A stretch of 64,000 bases of DNA from Escherichia phage EP_H11: the sequence record OP688485; one strand, written 5' to 3'. The position numbers and the translations under genes are program-made. Under the pieces are notes generated by a model. That model was given only the letters and a program-made list of their open reading frames with translations. It made no database searches and was not told the DNA's origin. Below are positions 51,154-51,233 of the stretch, piece after piece; the stretch's first letter is position 1, and each line of letters opens with the position of its first letter.

Positions 51154-51233
51154 TCGGAGGTAATTCCTCCGATGCTTACTCTAAATCTTTTCCGAGAGAC
51201 TTAAAGTAAGCAACCACGTTAGGAGTAATTATT

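Follow-up and report, generated by a model that had tools for sequence, protein, structure and literature searches.

A conserved two-hairpin leader upstream of a phrog_624-family gene in Escherichia phage EP_H11 and its possible role as a protective 5′ end

In the genome of Escherichia phage EP_H11 (sequence record OP688485), a hairpin lies directly downstream of a promoter-like repeat, in the leader of a gene for a 182-aa protein. The question raised by this locus is what the hairpin does and whether it controls translation of the gene that follows. A preliminary description of the 64,000-nucleotide stretch analysed here (the window) had proposed that the hairpin sequesters a ribosome-binding site (RBS), that it precedes a 10-codon mini-ORF, and that leaders of this kind may confer translational control. 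The IME392/EP_H11-like phages are barely studied E. coli phages of ~111-116 kb, which carry split multisubunit RNA polymerase genes and have been compared in the literature with thymidine-hypermodifying phages; literature searches on IME392, EP_H11, YerA41 promoters and the motif string returned nothing on transcription in this phage group. The closest complete relative is Escherichia phage vB_EcoM_IME392 (116 kb), to which the window locus is ~91% identical and whose RNA polymerase beta′ is split, Rpb1 domains 1-2 and 3-5 residing on two proteins. By its terminase, the phage falls together with Acinetobacter phage Ab1-TPeters and Ralstonia phage RP13 in a group that has been sampled only sparsely, YerA41 being more distant. 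Eight relatives carry the leader locus: IME392, one JGI metagenome contig and six Logan/ENA contigs (the metagenome scan yielded one useful contig, L014). Together with the window they form a nine-sequence comparison, with seven distinct sequences; a second alignment, of five sequences, comprises the window and four relatives and includes the flanking genes. The features of the locus are collected in Table 1.

Table 1. Coordinates of the leader elements, the downstream gene and the surrounding gene blocks in the window.
Feature	Position	Strand	Details
Structural genes	12.3-50.0 kb	−	
Replication and nucleotide-metabolism genes, tRNAs	1-12 kb and 50.1-64 kb	+	gene blocks
Promoter-like repeat, copy 6	51119-51153	+	block A CCGCTCTTT 51119-51127; 7-nt variable spacer 51128-51134; block B TCGAAAGGCTGTTAAAGTG 51135-51153
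HP1	51153-51173	+	TCGGAGG 51154-51160 pairs with CCTCCGA 51166-51172 (7 Watson-Crick pairs); loop TAATT 51161-51165; closing pair G51153·U51173
Mini-ORF string (MLTLNLFRET)	51172-51204	+	ATG, 9 sense codons and TAA; judged not a gene
HP2	51174-51211	+	15-bp hairpin with two 1x1 C·A mismatches; UNCG-type apical tetraloop 51191-51194
RBS of the 182-aa gene	51221-51236	+	AGGAG 51221-51225; 8-nt spacer TAATTATT; GTG 51234-51236
182-aa gene, phrog_624 'DNA binding protein' family	51234-51782	+	last ~20 codons overlap promoter copy 7 (blocks ~51723-51758)

The leader follows the sixth copy of a repeat made of two blocks around a spacer, the spacer being the sole part of this copy that differs among the relatives. 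A search with the 19-mer of block B, allowing up to 3 mismatches, returned 11 matches in the window, on the + strand only, against 0.02 expected; a relaxed pattern gives 12 copies. The full unit reads CCGCTCTTT-N7-TCGAAAGGCTGTTAAAnYG and ends in an invariant G, which in copy 6 is G51153. IME392 carries 25 copies, every one co-oriented with the genes, and a divergent relative, L020, has a variant form of the unit, in places as tandem arrays. BLAST of the unit against 50,697 phage records found a match in IME392 only, and a 16-mer from it gave only single chance matches in IMG/VR. A consensus scan found no sigma-70 promoter at the motif, and no − strand promoter motif could be recognised by eye in the − strand intergenic regions. 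The position and orientation of the repeat suggest that it is a promoter.

The likely start of transcription can be deduced from two other sites. Copy 5 (50111), which has 26 identical bases in common with copy 6, is the promoter with which the + strand block opens, and its transcript must therefore include the Shine-Dalgarno sequence (SD) of the gene behind it. At that site, the sequence runs ...AAAGTG TCGGAGG AATCAAAT ATG and the gene has a single SD, the GGAGG at 3-7 nt beyond the invariant G. The orthologous SD of L020 (AAAATG-GAGG-AAACCAAA-ATG) has the invariant G as its first base. Transcription at these sites must therefore start at or upstream of the G. By homology, we infer that copy-6 transcripts start at or just upstream of G51153, which would place the whole of HP1 within the mRNA, at its extreme 5′ end. 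A sigma-70 reading, in which TGnTAAnnT serves as an extended −10 motif, was rejected as a guide to the start site: its +1 would fall inside the GGAGG needed as SD at copy 5 and in L020.

The sequence TCGGAGG-TAATT-CCTCCGA, with GGAGG in its 5′ arm, was read directly after the promoter, at 51154-51172, as the preliminary description had it. When the G·U closing pair is counted, a second hairpin (HP2) adjoins HP1 without a linker, its arms reading GCUUACU-C-UAA-A-UCUUU [UCCG] AGAGA-C-UUA-A-AGUAAGC, so that ~17 stacked positions (15 bp and 2 mismatches) are stacked on the 8 bp of HP1. HP2 had escaped the preliminary description; it holds nearly the whole mini-ORF. A bare 7-bp hairpin is nothing unusual, ~23 perfect ones being expected per 64 kb by our own arithmetic, and 0.16% of the 26-nt windows of IME392 fold at −13 kcal/mol or better. 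The folding energy of HP1 is −11.3 to −13.4 kcal/mol (z −3.5 at −11.3) and that of HP2 −11.4 kcal/mol (z −3.4, with 0 of 200 shuffles as stable). Because of the second hairpin, the leader as a whole (91 nt) is clearly non-random (−29.9 kcal/mol, z −4.7, 0 of 200 shuffles as stable). Neither hairpin resembles a terminator or attenuator: HP1 is followed by GCUUAC and HP2 by AACCACG, without a U-tract, and the scan lists no terminator-like site. In an Rfam search of the leader and its surroundings tRNAs alone passed, the matches over the leader being noise (E > 0.1).

Sequence comparison indicates that the two stems are maintained. In the five-sequence alignment, variable positions number 0 of 44 in the stems and 4 of 9 in the apical loops (Fisher p = 4e-4). 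The third-codon positions of the three upstream genes, with 54 of 328 variable in the same sequences, give P(0 of 44) = 4e-4, and the body of the 182-aa gene varies at 149 of 499 positions. Low variation is not unique to the stems, since the conserved patch extends into the gene, where 0 of the first 50 coding nt vary. Across the nine sequences, 161 of 161 pair cells are standard pairs, and the sole stem change turns the closing pair of HP1 from G·U into G-C (in L024), which supports the presence of G51153 within an RNA helix. The loops do vary. That of HP1 is TAATT, AATTA (the exact inversion, in L023) or TGGTTA (in L016, where it adds a ninth pair); the tetraloop of HP2 is UCCG, UACG, UUCG or CACG, the free position of the UNCG type varying on the + strand. 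L016 further differs at one base just before the GTG. With no double-sided compensatory changes among the nine sequences, and 22 of the 23 pairs never varying, covariation is uninformative; because the relatives are too close, the evidence for pairing is the stem-versus-loop pattern together with the one-sided change.

As for the gene downstream, the AGGAG and the GTG start described for it were both found (Table 1). Its product begins MNIF, invariant in 11 of 11 aligned homologues, and the alignments of the product to the phrog_624 profile and in tblastn begin at residue 1. In the IME392 record the gene is annotated from an internal ATG 20 codons downstream, an annotation that is almost certainly too short. 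The gain for annotation is twofold: the GTG is confirmed as the gene start and a false small ORF is removed. A PDB sequence search with the 182-aa product gave no match, and IMG/VR held no relative of the protein.

These data speak against the proposal that the hairpin sequesters the RBS. The GGAGG buried in HP1 does not serve the 182-aa gene as its RBS: it sits 61 nt upstream of the real SD, which is mostly unpaired in the default ensemble (mean unpaired probability 0.58). The true RBS lies 10 nt after HP2, which leaves the SD untouched. The cost of opening a ribosome-sized footprint is 8.1 kcal/mol at the GUG, 6.4 kcal/mol at the copy-5 gene, and 24.6 kcal/mol at the AUG of the mini-ORF. An SD-sequestering cis-regulator, such as an RNA thermometer or a riboswitch platform, would pair the gene's own SD in the ground state; here that SD is not paired. 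Of the translational control put forward in the preliminary description, post-transcriptional control remains reasonable as a general idea because the leader is under selection, while the route through sequestration and the mini-ORF is unsupported.

What, then, is the GGAGG in the 5′ arm of HP1? Most promoter copies, including some before non-coding RNA regions and some in L020, continue after the invariant G with a purine-rich G/AGAGG, so that the motif behaves as part of the promoter unit. In short-leader genes, such as the one behind copy 5, this GGAGG is the working SD. In the leader studied here it would be the purine-rich start of the transcript and a decoy SD.

Hairpins in this position recur. 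In all 8 IME392 leaders of at least 48 nt a hairpin opens the leader, with only 0-4 nt between it and the invariant G, while the 12 leaders of at most 32 nt have no early hairpin. The first 40 nt of the 8 long leaders fold at −12.5 kcal/mol on average, as compared with −6.1 kcal/mol for the genome (Mann-Whitney p = 1e-4), and folds of −8 kcal/mol or better within 26 nt occur after 4 of the 25 IME392 promoter copies, the background being 2.4% (p ~0.003 by our own Poisson estimate). L025 supplies a further case, after a new promoter copy (GTG-TTGGGT-AAGTCC-ACCCAA). In the window, the similar hairpin reported after promoter copy 1 was recovered as ATAGAGCA-TCTGATGG-TGCTCTAT at 2876-2899, one base from where it had been placed; it proved to be the inner part of a 21-bp hairpin just before the RBS. 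The long-leader hairpins after the other promoter copies are unrelated to one another in sequence and, because they use G·U pairs, fold better on the + strand. Both properties argue for an RNA structure rather than a DNA operator.

We postulate, with a probability of about one half, that the leader is a structured 5′ UTR in which HP1 acts as a 5′-terminal protective stem-loop that also masks the decoy SD and AUG, leaving the true RBS open. According to this model, the phage-specific promoter motif would start transcription at or beside G51153, and the first transcribed bases, GUCGGAGG, would be the purine-rich sequence that trails most promoter copies. The gene starting 80 nt downstream, GUCGGAGG would be free to pair with CCUCCGAU and form the 8-bp HP1 at the extreme 5′ end, with HP2 next to it. 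A base-paired 5′ terminus would block RppH and the 5′-end sensor of RNase E and so stabilise the message. The same pairing would neutralise a decoy RBS and an AUG that might otherwise draw ribosomes to a meaningless 10-codon frame, and the gene's own RBS would stay open and be translated constitutively. Secondary structure at the 5′ end is known to stabilise E. coli mRNAs, and both RppH and the RNase E 5′ sensor require a 5′ end that is single-stranded (PMC3997798). The protective function is proposed by extension from this established E. coli mRNA-decay biology. A start 5 nt or more upstream of 51153 would leave a single-stranded tail and weaken the protection afforded by HP1. HP2 might add further protection, serve as a site for processing or protein binding, or insulate the RBS. 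For a 5′ cap as such, HP2 is superfluous.

The nearest parallel is gene 10 of phage T7 (the phi10 leader used in pET vectors). In both systems a phage promoter is followed by a purine-rich +1 region (GGGAGACC in T7, GUCGGAGG here) that pairs with a sequence a few bases further on, and the hairpin lies upstream of an open, strong RBS. The T7 transcript folds as GGGAGACC-ACAAC-GGUUUCCC, with an 8-bp stem, a 5-nt loop and −12.2 kcal/mol; HP1 has 8 bp, a 5-nt loop and −12.7 kcal/mol. The stabilising role of the T7 gene 10 5′ stem-loop is documented. The two leaders differ in that their sequences are unrelated, that a second long hairpin is present here, and that the T7 polymerase is a single-subunit enzyme whereas the polymerase here is probably multisubunit, to judge from the split beta′ of IME392. 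The 5′ UTR stabilisers of E. coli ompA and papA (Emory, Bouvet, Belasco) are likewise stable hairpins that begin at, or only a few nt from, the 5′ terminus of a long leader, a position that here depends on the deduced start site; the mechanism expected in either case is exclusion of RppH and of the RNase E 5′ sensor (PMC3997798). Those are host genes with sigma-70 promoters, whereas in HP1 the promoter unit contributes a 5′ arm that doubles as an SD look-alike. T4-like phages carry PeSL cassettes (PMC2839356, PMC4122927), and the present group resembles them in having many promoter copies with stem-loops and in the gain and loss of cassettes (L020 and L025 as compared with the window). The PeSL stem-loop is, however, a terminator combined with a sigma-70-like early promoter, whereas the present motif does not resemble a sigma-70 promoter and has the hairpin on its downstream side, without a U-tract. 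HP1 is thus a real and conserved hairpin, part of a recurring design, and is best filed with the 5′-terminal stabilising stem-loops of phage mRNAs, with HP2 as an extra conserved element.

If the protective model is correct, transcripts of these phages start, at the end of each promoter unit, with a purine-rich sequence that is also the RBS of short-leader genes, and this start is folded into a 5′-terminal hairpin wherever the leader is long. The model would also predict the 5′ ends of transcripts and, once the promoter is characterised, could provide compact promoter-plus-stabiliser parts. It would make the leader a fairly ordinary phage mRNA leader, with no new regulatory principle.

HP2 could have a role of its own, alone or stacked on HP1, as a recognition site for RNase III-type processing, of the kind seen between early genes of T7, or as the operator of an RNA-binding protein, possibly the product of the gene itself. 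Its length, its invariant stems, and the retention of the C·A mismatches and of the UNCG-type loop exceed what a 5′ cap needs, and copy 1 offers a 21-bp hairpin of RNase III-like length in a similar place, just before an RBS. HP2 is unique in the genome: no paralogue was found in the window or in IME392, only the RBS consensus TTAGGAGTAATTAT recurring, so that the second copy that would signal a regulon is missing. The RNase III hairpins of T7 (R1.1 and others) are also long, imperfect, mismatched hairpins of phage leaders and intergenic regions, just upstream of an RBS; HP2 differs from them in having only ~17 stacked positions, where an RNase III site has about 20 bp of (imperfect) duplex, and in following a promoter rather than lying between cistrons of one transcript. 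RNase III sites cannot be called from sequence by any rule, and no recognised RNA-binding domain is present in the 182-aa product. Such a role for HP2 seems to us unlikely, if conceivable.

A more elaborate scheme would make the leader a three-element switch. The loop and 3′ arm of HP1 (UAAUUCCUCC, 51161-51170) would act as an anti-SD for the RBS (GGAGUAAUUA, 51222-51231), and the 5′ arm as an anti-anti-SD. With the 5′ arm present the RBS would be free; with the arm lost, through 5′ processing or an alternative start, or occupied, the anti-SD would pair with the RBS across HP2 and turn translation off. Folding the RNA from 51159 or 51161 does yield exactly this long-range helix, and blocking the 5′ arm lowers the unpaired probability of the SD from 0.58 to 0.10. 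Moreover, the loop variants UAAUU, AAUUA and UGGUUA all keep the duplex with the RBS at about −8 to −8.7 kcal/mol, against −6.1 kcal/mol for the arm alone, a value that ~5% of random loops equal. However, CCUCC is complementary to any SD, which makes most of the duplex automatic, and the contribution of the loop is marginal (p ~0.05). Nor are the loop variants independent tests: the TAATTA target is its own reverse complement, so that complementarity necessarily survives the inversion in L023. As the RNA is being made, HP1 is the first of the two structures to form, and it is preferred by ~8.6 kcal/mol; removal of the 5′ arm has no known trigger, and with the deduced start site the arm lies wholly within the transcript. 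We consider a switch of this kind rather improbable. Its specific form as a 5′-end sensor, with three mutually exclusive partners and loss or occupation of the first 7-8 nt flipping the RBS from open to closed, is quite improbable. Were it true, translation would be coupled to the integrity of the mRNA 5′ end or to the choice of start site, and the design might extend to the other long leaders of the group.

Alternatively, the hairpins might be neutral relics of cassette insertion or recombination at the promoter repeats, their apparent conservation reflecting close kinship. The gene and its leader do behave as a cassette, being missing in L020 and following a different promoter variant and neighbour in L025, and the invariance of the adjoining 50 nt of coding sequence fits such a view. 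The concentration of changes in loops rather than among the 44 stem bases, together with the recurrence of the hairpin-first arrangement at leaders of unrelated sequence, makes it very doubtful.

We also considered an element acting at the DNA level or on the opposite strand. A palindrome placed immediately behind the promoter might be the operator of a dimeric DNA-binding protein; alternatively, the hairpin might form in an RNA transcribed from the − strand. As DNA, HP1 (+1 to +19) is perfectly palindromic, HP2 is more stable as a − strand RNA (−17.3 versus −11.4 kcal/mol), and the inverted HP1 loop of L023 is a mutation of the DNA-hairpin type. On the other hand, L016 shifts the spacing of the half-sites by one base while adding an RNA pair, the sister hairpins depend on G·U pairs and are not DNA palindromes, and the HP2 loop varies as expected of a UNCG loop on the + strand. 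Genes on the − strand are absent from 50100-64000, and no convincing − strand promoter or terminator was found. Either form of this explanation is highly unlikely.

The mini-ORF brings us to the last explanation, namely that hairpin-gated translation of a leader peptide modulates the 182-aa gene. The string ATG CTT ACT CTA AAT CTT TTC CGA GAG ACT TAA is present as described, one base further on than first placed; the A of its ATG is the last base of the Watson-Crick part of HP1 and its stop codon falls within the 3′ arm of HP2. The ATG has a GGAGG 11 nt ahead of it, and 8 of the 9 sequences keep an intact frame; the conservation of the string is explained by the stems of HP2, in which it sits. 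In L024 the change of the HP1 closing pair, which strengthens that hairpin, turns the ATG into ACG with the downstream gene intact. Codon 7 is TTC, TTT, TTA or TCA (F, F, L or S), all of this variation coinciding with the apical loop of HP2. Given the loss of the ATG, the variation at codon 7, and a cost of ~25 kcal/mol to open a start site whose SD and AUG are both base-paired, there is no conserved leader peptide. Because the mini-ORF stops 30 nt before the GTG, in a different frame, it is not coupled to the gene. The attenuators of ermC, cat and cmlA resemble this leader in that a gene with an SD of its own is preceded by hairpins and a short ORF. They differ in having an accessible RBS with a conserved start, a conserved peptide, and an SD sequestered by default and released by the ribosome; here the ORF start is inaccessible, the SD is free, and no ermC- or cat-type alternative pairing was found through which translating the mini-ORF would free the RBS of the gene. 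Largely refuted by L024, control by a leader peptide has a likelihood close to negligible, and the mini-ORF is a by-product of the HP2 sequence, not a gene. Other long leaders also hold short ATG-to-stop strings, the mini-ORF being no more than chance would provide.

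The promoter repeats look like recombination joints at which gene cassettes have been exchanged, a reading drawn from sequence comparison. The 182-aa gene runs into the following promoter copy, which is translated as its final ~20 codons (…PALFTPRKAVKVPEVTILS); homologues of the protein stop ~20 residues sooner in the alignment. L020, a more divergent relative carrying a variant promoter form, is devoid of the 182-aa gene and presents a tandem promoter array in its place. In the related contig L025, the same leader is preceded by an additional 104-aa gene and by a different promoter variant. 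Joints of this kind have likewise been described for the PeSLs of T4-type phages (PMC2839356, PMC4122927).

The repeated element is a promoter-like unit of ~37 nt with the consensus CCGCTCTTT-N7-TCGAAAGGCTGTTAAAnYG, present in 12 copies on the + strand of the window. The unit is not sigma-70-like. It was found solely in this small phage group, whose members encode subunits of a split multisubunit RNA polymerase.

Coordinates of the features described in the text
Feature	Sequence	Position	Strand	Basis
Promoter-like unit copies	window	2843, 4240, 6955, 8030, 50111, 51135, 51740, 51922, 53624, 55095, 56082, 61289	+	consensus match
First 50 nt of 182-aa CDS	window	51234-51283	+	five-sequence alignment
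Translated promoter copy ending 182-aa gene	window	51723-51782	+	
Leader hairpin HP1	window	51153-51173		
HP1 orthologue	L023	1420-1440		
Tandem promoter array	L020	6160-6320		
Leader with additional gene	L025	440-1015		
182-aa gene orthologue	IME392	L001 4290-4778 = record 59522-60010		database annotation
Promoter-copy sites with palindrome or terminator-like hairpin	IME392	about 14750-14800; 37530-37572		
Promoter copy with 5' hairpin	window	55095-55170		
Stretch lacking convincing protein genes	window	51783-54280	+	
tRNA-like sequence	window	52534-52618	+	Rfam tRNA model

In an alignment of the window with four relatives, the coding sequence of the 182-aa protein shows no variation over its initial 50 nt; past this segment, 30% of the positions are variable. 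The invariant segment would mark a recombination boundary or else reflect a constraint that acts on the initiation region at the RNA level. In the close relative vB_EcoM_IME392 (IME392, MH719082; sequence L001), the orthologous gene is annotated from an internal ATG, 20 codons 3' of the conserved GTG/MNIF start. The IME392 record, with 85 annotated features in total per 116 kb, is under-annotated.

The leader itself differs in the related contig L023, where the loop of HP1 has been replaced by its exact reverse complement relative to the window (TAATT to AATTA) and the stems are unchanged. Judging from the sequence, this change resembles the hairpin-loop inversions that template switching generates at inverted repeats in DNA.

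Two promoter copies of IME392 lie within or next to inverted repeats. At one site, the promoter and an inverted partial copy form a large palindrome followed by a T-run. At the other, a strong hairpin resembling a terminator, with UUUUU behind it (GGGGUUAGGUC...GGCCUAACCCC, -21 kcal/mol), comes 13 nt after the promoter, an arrangement that could constitute an attenuator or yield a short RNA. In the window, one promoter copy has a 5' hairpin (GGCGGAGGCGCGAUUGCGUCCUUC) and then an ATG-TAA start-stop. No recognisable Shine-Dalgarno sequence accompanies the putative start, at 55167, of the window's 105-aa ORF.

Downstream from the 182-aa gene lies a ~2.5-kb stretch lacking convincing protein genes. 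It holds three further promoter copies (listed as 51740, 51922 and 53624) and three or four tRNAs; other sequence within it may be non-coding RNA. Directly 3' of tRNA-Gly, an 85-nt tRNA-like sequence, absent from the ARAGORN output and probably endowed with a long variable arm, scores 52 bits with the Rfam tRNA model.
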